From Myxococcaceae bacterium (lineage in GTDB: Bacteria; Myxococcota; Myxococcia; Myxococcales; Myxococcaceae), in the NCBI GenBank assembly GCA_022842905.1, contig JALHOS010000238.1, positions 1 through 11,184 on the forward strand: a stretch of DNA of 11,184 nt, given 5' to 3'. The translations under genes were made by a program, and so were the position numbers. Shown piece by piece: positions 1,291-11,184 of the stretch (its first letter is position 1; every line of letters begins with the position of its first letter). A model generated the notes under the pieces. It did no database searches. It saw only the letters and a program-made list of their open reading frames with translations, and was not told the DNA's origin.

Positions 1291-1499
1291 GGGGTCGCCT
1301 CTACCCTGCGACAAGGTGCGCGTCGACGGCGCGAGTGACTGAGGTGGGTCGGCGCGGATTCGCTGGTCCAGCGGCCCCCGCTCCGATCCGCCCGTGGCTC
1401 GTCAACGCTCTGGCGCTCTTCGACAAACGGGGCGGATCGGCGGCACCCCGCGCGTGGCCTTGCCTTTGCTCTGTCGGTCCTCACGCATCGGAGGGGACC

Positions 1500-2114
1500 A
1501 TGGCGGGAGCGGCGGCGGGTACGAAGCGAGAGGTCGAGCGGCTCAGGGCAGAGGTCGACCGGCTCAAGGACGAGAACCGTCGCCTCATGCAGGTGGCCTA
1601 CCGCGATCCCCTGACCGGGCTGCGCAACCGGCGCTTCTTCAACGAGCGGCTGGGCGAAGAGCTGTGTCGCCTGCGCCGGGAGCCGGACCGCGTGTGCAGC
1701 GTCATCATGGTCGACCTCAACGCCTTCAAGGCGCTCAACGACACGCGGGGCCACGCCGCCGGAGACGCCGCGTTGGTCGCCGTCGGTCACTACCTCGAGT
1801 CGCTCACGCGCACGACGGACCTGTGCTGCCGCGTCGGGGGCGACGAGTTCATCGTGCTGCTGCCGAACACCGACGTGGCGCAGTGCCAGCGCGTGCTGCA
1901 GCGGCTGCGCGCGTACCTGCCTCGGCTGGCGACGACGGGCCTGGGCCAGCGAGGGCTGTCCCTGGGCGCGGCGACGGCGACGGCGAGCGACGACGAGCTG
2001 CGGCTGCTGAGCCGGGCGGACGAGCTGATGTACGCGGACAAGCGTGAAGCCCGCGGCGGCAGCGCCGTGGAAGTGTGCGACGAGCCCGAGCCGTGGCTCG
2101 CTCGGGCGGCCTGA
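1500..2114 (+). CDS. GGDEF-domain diguanylate cyclase (stand-alone: N-terminal coiled coil plus GGDEF, no recognisable sensor domain)
   Basis: The translation contains YRDPLTGLRNRRFF, DLNAFKALNDTRGHAAGD, the exact GGDEF motif (CRVGGDEFIVLLP), an RxxD I-site (RTTD) five residues upstream, and RADELMYADKR. The ATG at 1500 is preceded by GGAGGGG at 1489-1495. The N-terminal 30 aa (REVERLRAEVDRLKDENRRL) look like a heptad coiled coil. The alternative upstream ATG at 1335 lacks an RBS. Confidence 0.85.
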   Translation: MAGAAAGTKREVERLRAEVDRLKDENRRLMQVAYRDPLTGLRNRRFFNERLGEELCRLRREPDRVCSVIMVDLNAFKALNDTRGHAAGDAALVAVGHYLESLTRTTDLCCRVGGDEFIVLLPNTDVAQCQRVLQRLRAYLPRLATTGLGQRGLSLGAATATASDDELRLLSRADELMYADKREARGGSAVEVCDEPEPWLARAA

Positions 2115-2139
2115 CCTCAACCGGTTGTTCTCGGTGTGG

Positions 2140-2620
2140 TGAGCGGCGACGAGCGATGGCGCGACGTCACGCGCCCGTCCTCCTCTCAGCGACGGCGACA
2201 GTGAGCGACCGCCCACGTCACCAGCCGTACACCGCGTGGCGATGACCCGGCGAGGGACGACGAGCGCCCCCCGACGTCACGCGACCGTCCTCTGCGCGGC
2301 GACGGTGATGGTGAGCGACGACGAGCGGCGGCCCAACGCGCCGGTCGTCCTGCGCGTGGCGAGAATGACCGGCGAGGGACGACCTGACGTCACGCGACGG
2401 TTCTCTGCGCGGCGATGATGATGGTGAGCGACCGCCCTACGTCACCAGCCGTCCACCGCGCTGTGACGGTGACCCGGCCAGCGACGACGAGCGACCCCGC
2501 GACGTCACGCGATCGTCCTCCGGGTGGCGATGACTCGACGAGCGACGACGAACGAGGGCCTGACGTCACGCGACGGTCCTCTGCGCATTGTGACGACGAC
2601 GAGCGGTAGCCGAGCAGGGC
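2140..2620. repeat. degenerate 57-bp tandem array of about 9 units, derived from a segment of the GGDEF 3' coding region
   Basis: The motif (g)agcgacgacgagcg recurs about every 57 bp (near 2150, 2258, 2316, 2371, 2430, 2482, 2540, 2594). Each unit contains gacgtcacgcg...cgtcctctgcgcggcgacggtgatggtgagcgacgacgagcg, alignable to GGDEF bases about 1929-1998 (gcgacgacgggcctgggccagcgagggctgtccctgggcgcggcgacggcgacggcgagcgacgacgagc). In the gene the two GACGACG direct repeats lie exactly 57 bp apart (1931 and 1988). Confidence 0.75.
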
Positions 2621-2759
2621 GGACGAGCTCATGGACGCCGACCAGCGTGAAGCCCACCTGGGCTCCTCCGTCGTATTCGGCGACGAGCCCGCGCCCCGAC
2701 GTTCTCAGGCCCTCCTTCATGGGCAACGACCGTGTGCCCCGCGCGCGGCAGAATCGTGA
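2610..2759 (+). pseudogene. remnant of a GGDEF C-terminus (duplicate of bases about 2005-2114), preceded by an in-frame TAG
   Basis: 2619-2700 translates to ADELMDADQREAHLGSSVVFGDEPAP versus ADELMYADKREARGGSAVEVCDEPEP in the intact gene. Nucleotide alignment of ggcggacgagctcatggacgccgaccagcgtgaagccc against ggcggacgagctgatgtacgcggacaagcgtgaagccc is clear. TAG at 2607-2609 is in the same frame immediately upstream; the frame ends at TGA 2757-2759. Antisense ORFs 1287..2216 and 2505..2726 both contain GFTLV(R/G)VH(Q/E)LVRPA, which independently shows the duplication. Confidence 0.55.
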
Positions 2760-2851
2760 ACTCCAGCTGATTCTCTTGGGCTGCGTCGATTACTCGCAGT
2801 TCGGCCGCCGCGCTCGATTCGTCGCGTCGGTGGAGCGCGGCCCACGCGTAT

Positions 2852-2863
2852 GGTGCGCGCACC
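2852..2863. promoter_or_regulatory. 12-bp perfect palindrome GGTGCGCGCACC in the upstream region of the NfeD-flotillin operon (candidate operator)
   Basis: Read directly from the sequence; it lies about 135 bp upstream of the nfeD-like ATG in the only extended non-coding stretch of moderate AT content (2700-2990). Confidence 0.2.
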
Positions 2864-2998
2864 ACCGCGAACGAGAGGAGGTCGGGGGCGAAAGCGCGGC
2901 GCCTCGAGCAGCGCAGGGTCGACACTCCAGCTTCAAGCGTCGAGCCGAACAGCGTGAGCGCGACACCGCCAAGCCGTCGTTGCGGTGCCCAGACAAGC

Positions 2999-3781
2999 AT
3001 GGTCGAGTCCGCCCGCCCCATGACCTCCTTCGTCGAGCTCCTGGTGGGCTTCCCCACCGCGCCGTTCACCGCCGCGCTGGGGGTGGCGGTGTTGTACTGG
3101 CTGCTCGTCATCGTCGGCGCCGCGGGGGTCGACCTGCTCGACGGCGCGGGCGACGGCGCGGCGGGTGGGGTGAAGGCCGCCGGTGAAGCGCTGTCCGGTG
3201 GGCTCAAGGCGGCGGGCGACGTGCTGGCGGCTGGCAAGGCCGGCGCCGAGGCAGCGCAGGCGAAGAGCGGCGTGTTCGAAACGCTGGGCCTGGGCGGCGT
3301 GCCGGTGACGGTGGCGTTCACGGCGCTGACTTTCTTCGCCTGGGCGACGAGCGTGGGCGTGGTGTCCTGGCTGCACCCCGAGGGCCTCGCGCTGCGGCTG
3401 GCCGTGTTCGTGGGCTCGCTGGTGGCGGGCCTCGTGGCGGGCAGCGCGGTGACGCGGCCGCTGCGTCGGGTGTTCACCAGCGCCGAAGGCCGCCGCCGAG
3501 ACCAGCTGGTGGGGCACCTGTGCACGGTGACGAGCACCAAGGTCGACGCGGGCTTCGGCACCGCCGAGGTGTCGGACGGCGGCGCGGCGATCGCCGTGCA
3601 CGTCGTGTGTCACAAGCAGAACGGGCTGAAGAAGGGCGATGCCGCGCTGCTGATCGCGTACGACGCGCAGAAGGACACGTACGACGTGGAGCCGCTGGAC
3701 TTCCTCGAGCCCCACGAAGTCAAGGCGCTGGACGACCCCGAAGCGCGCAGTCGGGTCTTGGCAGGCCGCATCAAGCTGTAG
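2999..3781 (+). CDS. NfeD-like short-form membrane protein (three TM helices plus C-terminal OB-fold beta-barrel), the usual flotillin partner (YuaF/YqiJ-like)
   Basis: Three hydrophobic helices (FVELLVGFPTAPFTAALGVAVLYWLLVIVGAAGV; VPVTVAFTALTFFAWATSVGVVSWL; LRLAVFVGSLVAGLVAGSAV) are followed by a Gly/Val-rich beta segment (GHLCTVTSTKVDAGFGTAEVSDGGAAIAVHVVCHKQNGLKKGDAALLIAYDAQKDTYDVEP) typical of the NfeD C-terminal domain. The gene sits immediately upstream of flotillin. Start is uncertain between GTG 2954, ATG 2999 and ATG 3020, with no clear SD at any of them. Stop TAG is at 3779-3781. Confidence 0.7.
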   Translation: MVESARPMTSFVELLVGFPTAPFTAALGVAVLYWLLVIVGAAGVDLLDGAGDGAAGGVKAAGEALSGGLKAAGDVLAAGKAGAEAAQAKSGVFETLGLGGVPVTVAFTALTFFAWATSVGVVSWLHPEGLALRLAVFVGSLVAGLVAGSAVTRPLRRVFTSAEGRRRDQLVGHLCTVTSTKVDAGFGTAEVSDGGAAIAVHVVCHKQNGLKKGDAALLIAYDAQKDTYDVEPLDFLEPHEVKALDDPEARSRVLAGRIKL

Positions 3782-3834
3782 CGAAAAGCAGACAGACGAA
3801 CGAGCGCAGTCACATACCGAAGGGGAACGTACCG

Positions 3835-5928
3835 ATGGACATGCACAACGTGGTGGCCGTGTTGACGGTGATTGGCCTCGCCTTCCTGTTCGTGGTGGGC
3901 GTCGCCGTCATGGTGGCGCGCTTCTACCGACAGGTGGCGCAGGGCCAGGTGTTGATCGTCAACACCATGAAGAGCGAGCCGCGGGTGAGCTTCACTGGCG
4001 CGGTGGTGCTCCCCATCATCCACCGGGCGGAGATCATGGATATCTCGCTCAAGACCATCGAGATCGATCGCCGCGGGAAGGAAGGCCTCATCTGCGCGGA
4101 CAACATTCGCGCCGACATCAAGGTCGCCTTCTTCGTGCGGGTGAACAAGACGGTGGAGGACGTGGTGAAGGTGGCCGGCGCCGTCGGCTGCGCCCGCGCG
4201 TCGGACCAGCAGACGTTGAGCCACCTGTTCGAAGCGAAGTTCTCCGAAGCGCTCAAGACCGTCGGCAAGCGGCTCAACTTCGAAGACCTCTACAAGGAGC
4301 GTGACAGCTTCAAGGACCAGATCGTCCAGGTCATCGGCAAGGACCTGAACGGCTACCACCTCGAAGACGCGGCGATCGACTTCCTGGAGCAGACGCCGAT
4401 CGAGATGCTCGACAAGGAGAACATTCTCGACGCGCAGGGCATTCGGAAGATCACCGAGCTGACCAGCAACCAGAACGTGCTGACCAACGATTTCAAGCAG
4501 ACCGAGCGCAAGCGGATCACCCAGCAGAACGTCGAAGCCGACGAGGCGGTGTTCGCGCTCGAGCGGCAGCGCGCCGAGGCCGCGGCCAAGCAGAAGCGGG
4601 AGATCGAGACCGTGCAGGCCCGCGAGCAGGCCGAGACGATGAAGGTGCAGCAGGAAGAGCACCTGCGCGCCGAGCAGGCCCGCATTCGGTCGGACGAAGA
4701 GATCAGCGTGCTCGAGCAGAACCGCATGCGGCAGGTCGAGGTCGCCGAGAAGAACCGCGAGCGTGTCGTCGGCATCGAAGCCGAGCGCGTGAAGAAGGAC
4801 CGCGACCTCGAGGCGATCGCCCGCGAGCGTGAGGTGGAGCTGCAGCGGATCGTCAAGGAGAAGGCGCTGGAAGTGGAGCGCAAGGCGATCGCCGACGTGA
4901 AGGCGACCCGCATCACCGTCGACAAGAAGGTGGCCACCGAAGAGGAGACCATCAAGGACGTGCACGTGCTGGCCGAGGCCAAGCGCAAGAAGGACGCGCA
5001 GATCATCGCCGCCGAGGCCACCGCCATGGAAGACGCGGTGCAGCGGGTGAAGGCCGCCGAGGCCGCCGAAGAGGTGTCGCGGCACGAAGCCAAGCAGCGG
5101 CTCATCTCCGCGGAGGCGTCGCTGGAGGCCGCCGACAAGGAAGCGCGGGCGAAGATTCGGCTGGCCGAAGGCGCGCAGGCCGAAGCCGCCGCGCAGGGCC
5201 TGGCCGACGCCAAGGTGAAGGAAGCCAACGCCGCCGCCGCTGAGAAGGTGGGCCTGGCGAACGTGCGCGTGAAGGAAGCGGACGCGGTGGCGACGGAGAA
5301 GGCGGGGCTCGTGCAGGCGCACATCACCAAGGAGCAGCTGGCCGCCGAGGCGCTGGGGCTCGAGCAGAAGGGCGTGGCGCAGGCGAAGGTGAAGGAAGCC
5401 GACGCCGCCGCGCTCGAGAAGCAGGGGCTGGCCGAGGCGTCGGCGATCAAGGCCAAGGTGTCGGCCGAGGCGTCCGGGGTGCAAGAGCGGCTGCTCGCCG
5501 AGTCGAAGGGGCTCAAGGAGAAGGCCGAGGCCATGAAGCTGCTGCAGGGCGCCACCAAGGAGCACGAGGAGTTCCGCCTCAAGCTCGAGAAGGAGAAGGC
5601 GGTCGAGCTGCGCGGGCTCGAGGTCAAGCGCGACATCGCCGAGCAGCAGGCGAAGGTCATGGGCGCGGCGTTCTCGCAGGCGAAGATCAACATCATGGGC
5701 GGCGACGGCGCGTTCTTCGACCAGTTCATGAAGGCGGTGACGCTGGGCCAGTCGGTGGACGGCGCCATTGGCCACAGCGATTCGCTCAAGACGCTGCTCA
5801 AGCCGTACCTGAACGGCGACAAGAGCCTGCCGGACGACGTCAAGGAGATCCTCTCCAAGCCGGGCCTGACGCAAGACGCGCAGAACCTCGCGCTCACCGC
5901 CCTGCTCACCAAGCTCGCCAAGAGCTGA
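3835..5928 (+). CDS. flotillin-family protein (YqiK/FloT-like): N-terminal TM anchor, SPFH/Band-7 domain, long EA-rich coiled coil, flotillin C-terminal region; 697 aa
   Basis: ATG at 3835 is preceded by AAGGGGA at about 3816-3824. The TM segment is VVAVLTVIGLAFLFVVGVAVMVARF. The SPFH core reads GQVLIVNTMKSEPRVSFTGAVVLPIIHRAEIMDISLKTIEIDRRGKEGLICADNIRADIKVAFFVRVNK. Heptad Glu/Ala/Lys/Arg-rich coiled coil spans roughly 4550-5560, with internal KVKEA(D/N)AAA(L/A)EK repeats near 5190-5420. Stop TGA is at 5926-5928. Confidence 0.9.
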   Translation: MDMHNVVAVLTVIGLAFLFVVGVAVMVARFYRQVAQGQVLIVNTMKSEPRVSFTGAVVLPIIHRAEIMDISLKTIEIDRRGKEGLICADNIRADIKVAFFVRVNKTVEDVVKVAGAVGCARASDQQTLSHLFEAKFSEALKTVGKRLNFEDLYKERDSFKDQIVQVIGKDLNGYHLEDAAIDFLEQTPIEMLDKENILDAQGIRKITELTSNQNVLTNDFKQTERKRITQQNVEADEAVFALERQRAEAAAKQKREIETVQAREQAETMKVQQEEHLRAEQARIRSDEEISVLEQNRMRQVEVAEKNRERVVGIEAERVKKDRDLEAIAREREVELQRIVKEKALEVERKAIADVKATRITVDKKVATEEETIKDVHVLAEAKRKKDAQIIAAEATAMEDAVQRVKAAEAAEEVSRHEAKQRLISAEASLEAADKEARAKIRLAEGAQAEAAAQGLADAKVKEANAAAAEKVGLANVRVKEADAVATEKAGLVQAHITKEQLAAEALGLEQKGVAQAKVKEADAAALEKQGLAEASAIKAKVSAEASGVQERLLAESKGLKEKAEAMKLLQGATKEHEEFRLKLEKEKAVELRGLEVKRDIAEQQAKVMGAAFSQAKINIMGGDGAFFDQFMKAVTLGQSVDGAIGHSDSLKTLLKPYLNGDKSLPDDVKEILSKPGLTQDAQNLALTALLTKLAKS

Positions 5929-5935
5929 AGCCCCC

Positions 5936-8900
5936 ATGGCGACCAGTGAGGTGAACCTCGAGGGCGGCAGCTACGAGGTGATTCGGTCGCGGCTGGCCGG
6001 CCAGGCGACGCAGCTGGCCCAGGCCGCCGAGGCGCTCAACCAGAAGCGCCGCGAGGAGTTCGGCGGTGACGAGCTGGCCGTGGCCGGCAACGACCGCGTC
6101 CGCACCGAGCACAGCTGCGTGGCCCGCGACATCGTCCCGTTGGGCAGCCGACTCTTGCTCGGCTTCAACGTCTTCATGGGCCTCAAGCAGGAACGCGCCC
6201 CGAAAGACGTGTTCAGCCTGCACCAGTTCGTTCGCCAGCCCGACGGCACGTTCAACTTCGACGAGCTCAAGCCGAGTGAGGGCGGCGGCTTCCTCGAGGA
6301 CCGCCGCTTCGCCAAGGACTTCGGCGAGCTGACTCGCTACTACAAGGACTGCAAGCTGCTGCGGCTCTTGCGCACCGACGGCCGGCTCCTCGCGGTGATG
6401 CAGACGGGCCTGACGCTGCGCGACGTGAAGGTGTTCCGCTTCAGCGTCGACCAGGAAGGCCGCGCCACCTACCTGGACCTCAACGGCGAGAGCGAGCTGC
6501 CCCGCGTGCCCACGCACGACTTCGAATGGACCCGGCTGGGCCGCGAAGACGTGGTGCAGGGCCGCTTCCCGCACGTCAACGTCTTCGACGAGATCTTCGT
6601 GGAGACGATGGGCGGCGACCTGACGGTGAAGGTCGAGAACAACACCGAGACGGGCCAGGGCATCTTCTCGGAGCCCGTCGCCGAGAAGGACCAGTCGCTG
6701 GACGACGCCGAGTTCCACGTCGCGAAGGCCGGCGGCCTCATCCTCCTCAAGGTGCGGCCGTTCCGCGAAGAGGCGTACCGCTACCTCGTCTACAACCCGA
6801 GCACGCGGGAAGTGCACCGCGTGGACGGCTTGGGGCTGTCTTGTGTGCAGCTCCCAGAAGAGCAGGGCGTCGCGTTCCCCGGCGGCTACGCGCTGCGCAC
6901 CGGCGAAGTGAAGACGTTCGACGGCGACTGGTCGGAGCTGGCGTTCGAGCGCGCGCTCAAGAGCCCCAACGGGGAAGACGTGCTGTACGTCTTCTTCGGG
7001 CTCAAGTCCGGTCGCTACCTGCTGCTGCCGTACAACCTGGTCCGCAAGGAAATGGCGAGCCCGCTGCCCTGCCACGGCTGGTCGCTCTTCCCTGACGGGC
7101 AGCTCGTCATCTTCAAGGGCACCAGCGACGAGCCGACCCGCGTGCACCCCATGCAGGTGTGGAAGACGCCGTTCCTCTCGGCCGAAGTACACGCCGCCCG
7201 CCCGCCCCGGGCCACCGCGCTCGGCCGAATCGGCAACGCGGACCTGGTGCGCGGCATCGCCGACGTGCTGACGCTCAAGCGGCTGGCCAGCGCGGACAAG
7301 CCGACGCGGCGCACGTGGGAAGAGCTGGTCTCGCAGGCGCAGCGCGCGCTCGACGCGTACTTCTGGCTGTCGGAGCCGAGCGTGGCGCTGGCGGACCAGG
7401 TCCGCGCGGTGAAGGCGTCGGCGGAGCTGATCCTCGACGAGTTCGAGAAGGTACAGGCGCTCAAGAAGCGCGCGCAGGACGGCATGGCCGACGCCGAGGC
7501 GCAGGTCAGCCAGCTGCTCTCGAACACCACGCCCGGCGTGCTCACCAGCACGCAGGAGTTCATGGGCGCGCTGCAGGCCATTCGCAGCCAGCGGGGCAAG
7601 CTCATCACCCTCAAGGAAGTCCGCTACGTCGACGTGGCCCGGCTCGACGCCATGGAAGGGCAGCTGGTCGAGCAGGCCGGCGCCGTCAGCCAGGCCTGCG
7701 TCGAGTTCCTTTTGACGCCCAGCGCCTTCGACGCGGTGAAGGCCGAGCTGGCCCAAGCCCAGCAGCGCGTGGACGCCGTCGCGCGCACGGCCGAGCTCGA
7801 GCCGCTCGTCAAACAGCTCGAGGAGACGGGGCAGGGGTTGGACCTGCTCGGCGAGGCCGTCGCGGCGCTCAAGGCCGGCGACGCGGACCAGAAGGCGCAG
7901 ATCCTCGAGCGGCTCTCGGAGGTGTACGCCCAGCTCAACCGCACCCGCGGCGGCGCGCTGGCCAAGCGCAAGGACCTGCTCACCAAGGACCAGCGCGCGG
8001 AGTTCGGCGCGCAGTTCAAGCTGCTGGGCCAGGCGCTGGAGAGCGCGCTGGCGCTGACCGACACCCCGGAGCGCTGTGACGAGCAGCTCGCCCGGCTGTC
8101 GGTGCAGCTCGAAGAGCTCGAAGGCCGCTTCGCCGAGCTCGACGAGTTCGCCACCCCGCTCGCCGAGCGGCGAGAGGCGCTGTTCGAAGCGTTCGAATCG
8201 AAGAAGCGCACGTTGGTGGACGAGCGGCAGCGACGCGCGCTCAACCTGTTCCAGGCGGCGGAACGAATCCTCCAGGGCGTGCAGCGGCGGGTGAAGGCCT
8301 TCACCACCGAAGACGAGCTCAACGCGTTCTTCGCCGGCGACGCCATGCTCGAGAAGCTGCGCGAGCTGGGCAAGCAGCTGCTCGCGCTCAAGGACTCGGT
8401 GAAGGCCGACGAGCTGGAGTCCAAGCTCAAGGCCGCCAAGCAGGACGCGCTGCGCGGCCTGCGCGACAAGAAGGACCTGTTCGAAGACGGCCAGAACGTC
8501 ATCAAGCTGGGCGATCAACGCTTCAACGTGAACACGCAGCCGGTGGAGCTGACCGTGCTGCCCAAGGACGGCGCGCTCTGTCTGCACGTGACGGGCACCG
8601 ACTACCTCCAGCCGCTTCAGGACGCCGCGCTCGAGCAGCACAAGGCGCTGTGGGACCGCACGCTGCCCAGCGAGGCGCCGCACGTGTACCGGGCCGAGAC
8701 GCTGGCCGCGACGCTGCTGTTCCGCGCCGAAGCCGGAGAAGGGGGCCTGTCGCTGCTGCGCCTGCGTGAGGCCGTCAACGCCGCGGACGGCGGGCTGTCG
8801 GCGGTGCGGCAGGTCGCGCAGGACCGCTTCGACGAAGGCTACGAGCGCGGTGTGCACGACGCCGACGCCACGGTGATCCTCGGCGAGGTGTTGCGCGCGT

Positions 8901-11184
8901 ACGAGCTGGCCGGCCTGCTGCGCTACCCCGGCACCGCGCGGGCGTGGGCGGCGCTGTACTGGGGCCTGCTCGTCGACCCCAAGGACAAGCCTTCGGCGCA
9001 GCGGCAGGCGCAGAGCTTCGGCCGGCTCAAGGACACCTTCGCCACCAGCCCTGCCTTCGCGCAGGTGGTGCAGGACTGGGCCGGGCGCCTGGCCAAGCGC
9101 TGCGGGGCCGAAGGGCTGGACGTGAAGGGCGCGGACGCGGCGCTCGCGGCGCGCTACCTCCTCGAGGAGCTGGGTCAGGACGACGTGCGCTTCGTCACGT
9201 CGCACGACGCGCTGCTGCTCAAGGACGGGCTGCTCGCCGCGCTGGACTCACAAGGGACCCGGGCCCGCTTCCTGGACGACCTGAGTCAGGTGAGCGCGCT
9301 GTTGGACCGCTGGCGGCTGGCCCGCGCGTGGCTCGACGCGGTGGTGGTCGCGCCTTCGAGCGGCGCTGCGCTCAAGGGGCTGGCGCACGCGGTCGACGAA
9401 GCGGCGGCGCTCTTGGTGGTGGGGCCCGACGTGCTCCCTCGCCGCGAGAGCCAGGCGCTGGTGGCCGGCCGCGTCACCGGCCTGCTCGGGCAGCACCCGC
9501 GCATCGTCGACCGAGCGCTCGACGTGCGCATCGACGAGTTCGTCAGCCGGCTGTCGGCGTTCGTGCGCGACGACGTGCCGGCGTTCCACACGTTCCGCGG
9601 ACTGGTGCGCCGCGTGCTCGACGAACAGAAGGCGAAGCTGCGCCTGGACGAGCTGGTGCCCAAGGTGCTCTCGAGCTTCGTGCGCAACGAGCTCATCGAC
9701 AGCGTGTACCTGCCGCTCATCGGGAAGAACTTGGCCAAGCAGCTGGGCGCCGCCGGCGACACCAAGCGCACCGACCGCATGGGCATGCTCTTGCTCATCT
9801 CCCCGCCGGGCTACGGGAAGACGACGCTCATGGAGTACGTGGCCAGCAGGCTGGGGCTCGTGTTCGTCAAGGTGAACGGGCCGGCGCTGGGGCACCAGGT
9901 GCTGTCGTTGGACCCGGCCGACGCGCCCAACGCCACCGCGCGGCAGGAGGTCGAGCGCATCAACTTCGCGTTCGAGCTGGGCAACAACGTCATGTTGTAC
10001 CTGGACGACATTCAGCACACGAACGCGGAGCTGCTGCAGAAGTTCATCTCCCTGTGTGACGGGCAGCGCCGGGTGGAAGGTGTCTGGGGCGGCAAGACGC
10101 GCACGTACGATCTGCGCGGCAAGAAGTTCTGCGTGGTGATGGCCGGCAACCCGTACACGGAGAGCGGCGAGACGTTCAAGATTCCGGACATGCTCGCCAA
10201 CCGCGCCGACACGTACAACCTGGGCGACATTCTCGACGGGAAGCAGCAGGTGTTCGCGCAGAGCTACCTCGAGAACGCGCTCACGGCGAACCCGGTGCTC
10301 GCGCCGTTGTCCGGCCGCGCGCGCGGCGACGTGCTCAAGCTGTTCGCCATGGCCCGAGGTGAGCCGGTCGCGGCGACGGATCTCGAGCACCCGTACTCAG
10401 CGGTGGAACTGCAGGAGATCGTCGCCGTGCTGCAGCGCCTGTTCCGGGTGCAGGCGACGCTGCTCAAGGTGAACCAGCAGTACATCGCCTCCGCCGCGCA
10501 GGACGATCGCTACCGCACCGAGCCGCCGTTCAAGCTCCAGGGCAGCTACCGCAACATGGGCAAGCTGGCCGAGAAGGTCGTCGCGGGCATGACGGACGAC
10601 GAGGTGGAACGGCTCGTCGACGGGCACTACGCCCAGGAATCCCAGACGCTCACCACCGCGGCGGAGCAGAACCTGCTCAAGCTGGCCGAGCTGCGCGGGC
10701 GGCTGACCGAAGCGCAGGCGCAGCGCTGGGCCGAGCTCAAGCGCGGCTACCAGCGCGTGCAGCTCATGGGCGGAGGTGAAGATGACCCGGTGGCGCGCGT
10801 CACCGGCTCCATCGCCACGCTCGGCGCGAGGCTCGAGACCATCGGCACTGCCGTCGAGAAGGCCACTGCACGGCCTCCGCCACCCGCGCCCAACCTGGAA
10901 GGCGTGACAGAAGGGCTGTCCGTGGTGGCCTCGGCGCTCGAGAAGAGCCTGGCGCCGCGAGCTGCCTCGGAAGACGGAACCCTCAAGGCGCTGCTCGGCT
11001 CGCTATCTGCGTCTCTGGCGGAGCGCGCGGCCACACCTCAGAAGGTCAGCGACGACGCGCTGGTGCACGCGGTGCAGAGCGTCGCGCGGGTGTTGGCCGA
11101 GGTCGGTCAGAAGCCCACCGGCGGCGACGGCGGCCTCGTGGAGGCGGTCGAGGGGCTCACCCAGGTCGTCAAGGCGGCGCTGGA
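5936..11184 (+). CDS. giant multidomain protein of at least 1749 aa (3' end outside the window) with an ATPase core near residue 1290; N-terminal roughly 480-aa beta-rich region and roughly 450-aa alpha-helical/coiled-coil middle region
   Basis: ATG at 5936 lies 7 nt after the flotillin stop. The frame is open to the window end; I translated it by hand with no stops, GC3 bias is strong throughout, and no '+' track ORF shares the frame. Walker A is LLISPPGYGKTTL (9800-9826) and Walker B is VMLYLDD (9989-10009); CVVMAGNP fits sensor 1, then ...NRADTYNLGD.... Minus-strand ORFs 5906..9205 and 9248..10390 are its antisense shadows. Confidence 0.85.
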   Translation, partial: MATSEVNLEGGSYEVIRSRLAGQATQLAQAAEALNQKRREEFGGDELAVAGNDRVRTEHSCVARDIVPLGSRLLLGFNVFMGLKQERAPKDVFSLHQFVRQPDGTFNFDELKPSEGGGFLEDRRFAKDFGELTRYYKDCKLLRLLRTDGRLLAVMQTGLTLRDVKVFRFSVDQEGRATYLDLNGESELPRVPTHDFEWTRLGREDVVQGRFPHVNVFDEIFVETMGGDLTVKVENNTETGQGIFSEPVAEKDQSLDDAEFHVAKAGGLILLKVRPFREEAYRYLVYNPSTREVHRVDGLGLSCVQLPEEQGVAFPGGYALRTGEVKTFDGDWSELAFERALKSPNGEDVLYVFFGLKSGRYLLLPYNLVRKEMASPLPCHGWSLFPDGQLVIFKGTSDEPTRVHPMQVWKTPFLSAEVHAARPPRATALGRIGNADLVRGIADVLTLKRLASADKPTRRTWEELVSQAQRALDAYFWLSEPSVALADQVRAVKASAELILDEFEKVQALKKRAQDGMADAEAQVSQLLSNTTPGVLTSTQEFMGALQAIRSQRGKLITLKEVRYVDVARLDAMEGQLVEQAGAVSQACVEFLLTPSAFDAVKAELAQAQQRVDAVARTAELEPLVKQLEETGQGLDLLGEAVAALKAGDADQKAQILERLSEVYAQLNRTRGGALAKRKDLLTKDQRAEFGAQFKLLGQALESALALTDTPERCDEQLARLSVQLEELEGRFAELDEFATPLAERREALFEAFESKKRTLVDERQRRALNLFQAAERILQGVQRRVKAFTTEDELNAFFAGDAMLEKLRELGKQLLALKDSVKADELESKLKAAKQDALRGLRDKKDLFEDGQNVIKLGDQRFNVNTQPVELTVLPKDGALCLHVTGTDYLQPLQDAALEQHKALWDRTLPSEAPHVYRAETLAATLLFRAEAGEGGLSLLRLREAVNAADGGLSAVRQVAQDRFDEGYERGVHDADATVILGEVLRAYELAGLLRYPGTARAWAALYWGLLVDPKDKPSAQRQAQSFGRLKDTFATSPAFAQVVQDWAGRLAKRCGAEGLDVKGADAALAARYLLEELGQDDVRFVTSHDALLLKDGLLAALDSQGTRARFLDDLSQVSALLDRWRLARAWLDAVVVAPSSGAALKGLAHAVDEAAALLVVGPDVLPRRESQALVAGRVTGLLGQHPRIVDRALDVRIDEFVSRLSAFVRDDVPAFHTFRGLVRRVLDEQKAKLRLDELVPKVLSSFVRNELIDSVYLPLIGKNLAKQLGAAGDTKRTDRMGMLLLISPPGYGKTTLMEYVASRLGLVFVKVNGPALGHQVLSLDPADAPNATARQEVERINFAFELGNNVMLYLDDIQHTNAELLQKFISLCDGQRRVEGVWGGKTRTYDLRGKKFCVVMAGNPYTESGETFKIPDMLANRADTYNLGDILDGKQQVFAQSYLENALTANPVLAPLSGRARGDVLKLFAMARGEPVAATDLEHPYSAVELQEIVAVLQRLFRVQATLLKVNQQYIASAAQDDRYRTEPPFKLQGSYRNMGKLAEKVVAGMTDDEVERLVDGHYAQESQTLTTAAEQNLLKLAELRGRLTEAQAQRWAELKRGYQRVQLMGGGEDDPVARVTGSIATLGARLETIGTAVEKATARPPPPAPNLEGVTEGLSVVASALEKSLAPRAASEDGTLKALLGSLSASLAERAATPQKVSDDALVHAVQSVARVLAEVGQKPTGGDGGLVEAVEGLTQVVKAAL

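Follow-up and report, generated by a model that had tools for sequence, protein, structure and literature searches.

We analyzed a contig of 11,184 bp from a Myxococcaceae bacterium (JALHOS010000238.1, ~70% G+C), the whole of which is referred to here as the window, and mapped its genes by third-position G+C content (GC3) and Pfam matches. The region of interest begins within an intact GGDEF (diguanylate cyclase) gene on the plus strand (1500 to 2114), the parent of the duplicated material described below. The gene shows a strong GC3 bias over 1500 to 2100, and its 204-amino-acid (aa) product matches Pfam GGDEF over residues 33 to 185 (E = 5e-38). The orthologs form a Myxococcota family of ~200-aa proteins with the C terminus ...AA*, and the named relatives returned by a protein search are Myxococcota. 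From 5' to 3', the locus consists of a parental segment inside the gene, the live C terminus of the gene, its stop codon, about 10 to 25 nucleotides (nt), eight repeat units, a dead copy of the C terminus, and an ancestral intergenic spacer. This arrangement is probably a lineage-specific, nonfunctional fossil, in which the gene's 3' end was duplicated locally in tandem, expanded within the distal copy, and then decayed.

The repeat array occupies 459 bp of the plus strand (2141 to 2599) and comprises eight decayed units arranged head to tail, as recognized by MAFFT alignment of the units and by self-comparison. With borders set by cutting at a recurring GAGCGAC motif, units 1 through 8 lie at 2141 to 2202 (62 nt), 2203 to 2251 (49 nt), 2252 to 2312 (61 nt), 2313 to 2373 (61 nt), 2374 to 2425 (52 nt), 2426 to 2478 (53 nt), 2479 to 2539 (61 nt), and 2540 to 2599 (60 nt). 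The preliminary description of this DNA, which was made from the sequence alone, had counted about nine tandem copies with a 57-bp period: the copies are in tandem, but there are eight in addition to the parental segment, and 57 bp is the mean of units that range from 49 to 62 bp. Pairwise identities among the eight units are 63 to 86% (MAFFT, whole-length alignment). Long and short forms of the unit differ by a 10-nt sequence, GAGCGACGAC, and every long unit starts with GCGACGACG. Tandem Repeats Finder scored only the best-preserved 2.3 copies, with a period of 61, and the offsets preferred in self-comparison are 61, 113, 227, and 603, yielding sub-periods of about 57 to 61, 113, and 226 bp within the array. 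There is no GC3 bias or periodicity from 2115 to about 2790, stop codons occur in all six frames of the array (2 to 7 per frame), and no open reading frame (ORF) links 2114 to 2999.

The array is followed by a dead copy of the last ~40 codons of the GGDEF gene (copy B; 2592 to 2710, plus strand), which has 74% ungapped identity to 1989 to 2107 of the live gene (copy A) at an offset of 603. Copy B keeps the frame of the gene, but a TAG at 2607 to 2609 stands in place of the gene's CTG, confirming the earlier report of a stop-containing C-terminal copy, and the terminal TGA is lost. The 31 mismatches between copies A and B are distributed over codon positions 1, 2, and 3 as 12, 10, and 9. Copy B is thus a gene-fragment pseudogene: a 3' fragment without a start, homologous to the adjacent parent, interrupted by a premature stop, and no longer under constraint. 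The repeat units run seamlessly into copy B, just as the parental segment runs into copy A.

The resemblance of the units to the gene can be localized. After masking of the array, a profile spanning the unit junctions found a single significant match in the window, at 1965 to 1999 (18.9 bits, E = 1.7e-5, with 5.5 bits for the runner-up). When the array was divided into eight tiles of ~90 nt, the best match of every tile in the window, on either strand, was the GGDEF 3' end, as was that of seven of the eight single units. The tile at 2243 to 2332 is colinear with 1918 to 2004 over 87 nt (score of 35.5, compared with 22.5 for its best match outside this region), further colinear matches pair 1918 to 1996 with 2470 to 2551 and 1918 to 1947 with 2531 to 2560, and the stretch at 2125 to 2182 matches the unit junctions. 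An array that is real and gene derived, as had been proposed, is therefore upheld by both the profile and the tiles.

Within the gene, the parental segment is a 58-nt piece of the plus strand (1929 to 1986; codons ATTGLGQRGLSLGAATATA), in which homology to the units is individually significant only over 1961 to 2004. The segment is bounded by two direct repeats of GCGACGACG 58 bp apart and in different reading frames, the first at 1929 to 1937 (codons A-T-T) and the second at 1987 to 1995 (within S-D-D-E). The GACGACG contained in these repeats begins at 1931 and 1989, not at 1931 and 1988 as first described, so that the spacing is 58 bp rather than 57 bp and is out of frame. The first repeat, which would permit slippage, is present in this lineage only; at its position, the related loci L003 and L001 (see below) have GCGCGGGTC and GCGCCCACG. 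The claim that each unit aligns to the parental segment holds for the flanking 35 to 44 nt, which are individually significant, but not for the core of ~25 nt taken by itself. On these sequence comparisons, descent from the gene appears secure for about 35 to 44 nt of each unit, and for the rest of the unit it is plausible rather than proven.

The block is absent from related genomes. The protein search recovered only two close relatives, in which the GGDEF protein has 82% global aa identity over its full length (86 to 87% best local), as opposed to at most 72% local identity in all others recovered. In L001/L002 and L003, gene order is as in the window and the next gene is 82 to 88% identical at the aa level, but the spacer that separates this next gene from the GGDEF gene measures 259 to 268 bp, versus 885 bp in the window. 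Across the two closest and three more distant orthologous loci, the spacer is ~190 to 330 bp and contains no array, and no array occurs at the orthologous position in L001, L002, L003, or L029 through L033. The L003 spacer (1687 to 1954) aligns with 2709 to 3010 of the window at 86% identity, placing the extra ~600 bp (an insert of ~603 bp) precisely in the interval from the live stop codon to the ancestral spacer (2709 to 2998, plus strand), which has blocks conserved in L003 and L001 and at which the lineage-specific insert ends. Furthermore, the identity of copy B to copy A (70.6%) exceeds that to L003 (60.3%) or L001 (52.1%), and derived bases, including GCGACGAGCCCG, are common to both copies, indicating that the duplication is specific to this lineage. 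Since four-fold degenerate sites are only 61 to 72% identical between the window and L003, the time since their split has been ample for neutral decay of the units to 63 to 86%. No complete second copy of the GGDEF gene was seen in the orthologs; this was the outcome that the preliminary description had named as refuting its reading.

The ancestral spacer has features of its own. Over 2750 to 2998, identity to L003 is 86%, clearly above the level at four-fold degenerate sites, and the blocks CGTGAAC, GCTCGATTCGTCGCGTC, CGTATGGTGCG, and CGTCGTTGCG are kept in all three lineages. A perfect 14-bp palindrome, TGGTGCGCGCACCA, lies at about 2851 to 2864. This part of the spacer probably serves the downstream operon as a promoter, operator, or leader.

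The origin suggested in the preliminary description, by tandem duplication of the 3' end and subsequent decay, accords with orthologs that lack the block, with a copy B that is nearest to copy A, and with the missing coding signal. We infer two steps that would have preceded the decay. In the first, ~211 bp would have been duplicated in tandem, with a proximal copy at about 1914 to 2124 of the plus strand (borders approximate) that takes in the stop codon, the ~62 codons before it, and ~10 nt after it, as suggested by the colinear matches, including that between 1989 to 2107 and 2592 to 2710, and by the match of 2125 to 2182 to the unit junctions. Because the duplicated segment crosses the end of the gene, the gene would stay intact and the event would be neutral, leaving a 3' fragment downstream with neither start nor promoter. 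In the second step, the 58-bp piece between the GCGACGACG repeats would have expanded to eight in the distal copy, likely by replication slippage or unequal exchange and probably through successive doublings of blocks of 57, then 113, then 226 bp. The offsets are in keeping with this scheme, which predicts 211 + 7 × 57 = 610, against 603 to 613 observed. The slipped-strand amplification originally envisaged is retained insofar as the duplication is local, but simple slippage inside the gene does not suffice: it would leave the array on the 5' side of the live C terminus and, at 58 bp, shift the reading frame of the gene, such that a prior duplication of ~211 bp across the stop codon is needed. 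The third step, decay, is visible in everything downstream of the live stop codon, where the units are 63 to 86% alike and the distal C terminus retains 74% identity and has acquired a stop.

Several observations weigh against this reconstruction. Identities at offsets of 57, 113, 226, and 603 are all about 70 to 78%, so that divergence does not reveal the order of events; their similarity suggests that the duplication events were close in time. The similarity of the ~25-nt middle of the unit alone to the parental segment does not exceed its similarity to random places in the window, making the register of the amplified piece uncertain, and the stop-codon region GGCCTGACCTCAAC (2108 to 2121) fits about equally well as an alternative source of this middle portion. 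The flanks of the units are clearly more parent-like than the middle, which is not what uniform neutral decay predicts. In addition, the lineage is represented by a single assembly, and the search of the source genome was confined to the 11-kb window.

The unit middle carries a shared motif. ACGTCAC occurs seven times in the window, always on the plus strand (2164, 2215, 2274, 2387, 2439, 2502, and 2563) and nowhere else in the 11 kb, against an expectation of 1.56 and with none of 200 shuffles reaching seven; its complement, GTGACGT, is absent alongside these cores. It is the best-conserved 7-mer of the unit and is missing only from unit 4, although GAGCGAC and GCGA are conserved as well. The related palindromes are less widespread than the assertion that nearly every unit carries one: GACGTC is present in five of the eight units and TGACGTCA in two. 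The core of ~25 nt containing ACGTCAC, when taken alone, matches neither 1934 to 1968 nor the stop-codon region (2100 to 2140) better than random places in the window. GGCCTGACCTCAAC, in the live stop-codon region, is two changes away from GGCCTGACGTCAC, the core of units 5 and 8, a likeness that is not significant against background and that either is fortuitous or points to this region as the source of the unit middle. The ACGTCAC/GACGTC core would have arisen once, in a founder unit, and been kept in all units except unit 4. Because ACGTCAC is common to the long and short subtypes, one founder mutation before amplification is enough, and inheritance from a single founder is the best explanation of the core, rather than repeated acquisition or demonstrated selection. 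The original suggestion of acquisition unit by unit, perhaps under selection, is not supported; the run of conserved columns around ACGTCAC is no longer than column shuffling produces (P = 0.07).

Alternatively, the array might be kept as a functional cis element, with eight same-orientation ACGTCAC(GCG)/GACGTC sites at a spacing of ~57 bp serving as a platform for a DNA-binding protein or with the array acting as a transcribed spacer that tunes the downstream operon. Such a role would account for a 7-mer that is the best conserved in the unit, present in seven of eight units and otherwise absent from the window, for a unit middle that departs from the parent more than its flanks do, and for the position of the array just upstream of a conserved, regulatory-looking spacer. 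We nevertheless consider it very unlikely, given that the conserved run does not exceed that of shuffled columns, that other motifs of the unit (GAGCGAC and GCGA) are conserved too, that descent from one founder accounts for the sharing of the core, and that the orthologs retain the downstream genes and the spacer without any array. Nor is there structural support: folding of the array as RNA is no more stable than that of dinucleotide shuffles (z = +1.71 for the plus strand and +0.24 for the minus strand), Rfam returned nothing at E ≤ 1 over the whole window, and a scan of 1300 to 3100 found no promoter-like or terminator-like sites. It is very unlikely, too, that the array was born neutrally and was then co-opted, in this lineage only, as a multisite ACGTCAC(GCG) protein platform or as a long transcribed leader modulating the conserved downstream operon, which comprises the genes for the 260-aa, ~712-aa, and DUF3686/AAA ATPase proteins; if that were true, it would represent a regulatory array born from coding sequence.

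An origin outside the locus, in which a dispersed repeat family landed here and the resemblance to the gene is secondary, is very unlikely. The family would resemble the repetitive extragenic palindromic (REP) sequences and bacterial interspersed mosaic elements (BIMEs) or the mycobacterial interspersed repetitive units (MIRUs). When 185,579 species genomes, the source genome not among them, were scanned for three spaced ACGTCAC cores, 25 loci were recovered; among those inspected, almost every one was a tandem array in a GC-rich genome, and one Myxococcaceae metagenome-assembled genome (MAG) has at least five loci of one family. Such hits are expected from a pattern that itself selects for motif-bearing arrays, and a profile search detected no homolog of the window unit among the 25 loci. 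Moreover, the family in that MAG alternates ACGTCAC and GTGACGT as hairpins, whereas the seven cores in the window point one way and show no excess folding. There is no other copy of the unit in the 11-kb window; in metagenomes, a window-specific 25-mer had 0 matches, and a looser pattern gave 80 single-site chance matches and no array, the source genome being outside the collections scanned. The passage of the units into copy B, which mirrors that of the parental segment into copy A, also argues for a local birth. That the block is an artefact of a metagenome-assembled contig could be argued from the single assembly available for the lineage and from three related contigs that end inside a PAPKPAE-coding repeat, implying that repeats break these assemblies. 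This is highly improbable, in that assemblers mis-join near-identical repeats, not diverged ones, and here the units differ by 14 to 37% and copies A and B by 26%, with a biological pattern of decay (a stop codon and an even spread over codon positions). Finally, the region might be coding, as a frameshifted second GGDEF gene, as a repeat protein on either strand, or as the template repeat of a diversity-generating retroelement (DGR) directed at the gene's C terminus. Spurious-looking ORFs of 60 to 91 codons are present, and a near-copy of the gene's 3' end downstream superficially resembles a pair of DGR variable and template repeats. We regard these possibilities as extremely improbable: the region has no GC3 bias and has stops in all frames, and only the last ~40 codons were duplicated, which, together with mismatches spread 12/10/9 over codon positions, led us to reject a coding function. 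The DGR reading was rejected on the lack of adenine bias in the 31 mismatches (adenine in copy B at 6 and in copy A at 4), and no reverse transcriptase domain occurs among the window proteins.

The array has affinities with several known classes of repeats. Intergenic tandem repeats of the bacterial minisatellite, or variable-number tandem repeat (VNTR), type serve in strain typing by multiple-locus VNTR analysis (MLVA). The window array, like these, has head-to-tail units of ~50 to 60 bp between co-oriented genes, falls within the class as defined by a 10- to 100-bp unit in at least two copies, and presumably grew by slippage or unequal exchange. Unlike them, its units are strongly diverged (63 to 86%), and as such the array is probably no longer unstable. 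MIRU loci were reportedly described in mycobacteria by Supply et al. in 1997; the window array shares their position between co-oriented genes, but within the 11-kb window and the collections scanned it is a single locus rather than one of many, and it has a unit taken from the adjacent gene and lacks short ORFs that couple the flanking genes. Copy B resembles other gene-fragment pseudogenes in being start-less, stop-bearing, unconstrained, absent from orthologs, and beside an intact parent, but differs in that the fragment was also expanded internally, with a 58-bp piece present 8-fold. The nested periods of ~57, ~113, and ~226 bp recall the higher-order repeats of eukaryotic satellites, as generally understood, and this monomer, dimer, and tetramer series suggests growth by duplication of multiunit blocks; the window array is nonetheless tiny (459 bp), is bacterial, and bears no sign of ongoing homogenization.

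With REP/BIME elements, the array shares an intergenic location, a GC-rich composition, and a short palindrome (GACGTC), but it has no hairpin potential above that of shuffles, its cores have one orientation, and no dispersed copies were found in the window or in the collections scanned. Its regular ~57-bp periodicity in noncoding DNA is reminiscent of clustered regularly interspaced short palindromic repeats (CRISPR). The units, however, are degenerate and homologous from end to end, with divergence spread across all alignment columns and no unique spacers, in agreement with the initial view that the array is not CRISPR-like, and no cas genes occur among the proteins of the 11-kb window (Pfam and PADLOC). 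We found nothing pertinent in the literature on related myxobacterial repeats or on TGACGTCA sites.

The genome scan brought to light arrays of other kinds. In the Myxococcaceae MAG STL-MYX2, arrays occur at L007 (2378 to 2640), L011 (4800 to 5190), L015 (6870 to 7235), L016 (7720 to 7980), and L021 (6260 to 6445). These intergenic arrays, at no fewer than five loci, have a unit of ~57 nt in which ACGTCACGCG and its complement GCGTGTGACGT alternate every ~28 nt, forming hairpins of ~10 bp with variable loops in a BIME-like alternating architecture; the unit is not homologous to that of the window. At L004, L006, L010, L012, L013, L023, and L025, there are tandem arrays, mostly apparently intergenic, of 15- to 60-nt units with ACGTCACGC(G). 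Their hosts are unrelated GC-rich genomes (Streptomyces, Paraburkholderia, Vicinamibacterales, and several Myxococcota), as retrieved by a search pattern that selects for the motif.

A second fossil lies next door. The lipoprotein gene on the minus strand (757 to 1290) has decayed copies of its 3' end downstream, at 522 to 631 and 693 to 754 (within the interval 466 to 756). Over an 87-nt core (545 to 631), identity to 861 to 947 is 85%, and the copy translates to ...GAIVAVGEPAGTPLRFVGEGE.... These dead copies are absent from L001 and L003, where a mere 17 nt separates the two flanking genes. Independent support for the same process is therefore visible beside the GGDEF locus, and the presence of two fossils within 2.5 kb suggests that the process is frequent in this lineage. 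It is probably easier in large myxobacterial genomes, where the deletion bias may be weak.

The locus offers a small, clean example of how a bacterial genome can gain noncoding DNA and repeat arrays: duplication across the end of a gene is neutral, the dead copy can expand by slippage, and both last long enough to decay. It adds a further example of known processes and entails no new mechanism and no new class of element. For annotation, the lesson is that periodicity and palindromes in an intergenic block do not by themselves make it a CRISPR array, a REP element, or a regulatory array.

The remainder of the window is largely coding. Downstream of the GGDEF gene on the plus strand are genes for a 260-aa protein (2999 to 3781) and a protein of ~712 aa (about 3790 to 5928), neither with a Pfam match, and for a DUF3686/DUF7902/AAA ATPase of >1,749 aa (5936 to the contig end). 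A PADLOC scan of these three proteins gave no match. The mechanical ORF list also has long minus-strand ORFs at 5906 to 10390 (of 1,099 and 380 aa), which are shadows of this ATPase gene. The cluster at 2999 to 11184 is kept in the two closest relatives (L001, 1908 to 10350). At the left end, a plus-strand gene that runs off the contig (1 to 465) has a marginal, subthreshold match to PEGA (20.0 bits; cutoff, 20.8) and includes a 21-bp coding tandem repeat (1 to 164; 98% matches, 6.4 copies) that encodes (AEPAPKP)n. The window and the related contigs L001 and L003 all start inside this (AEPAPKP)n-coding repeat, which probably breaks these assemblies and might still vary actively in copy number.

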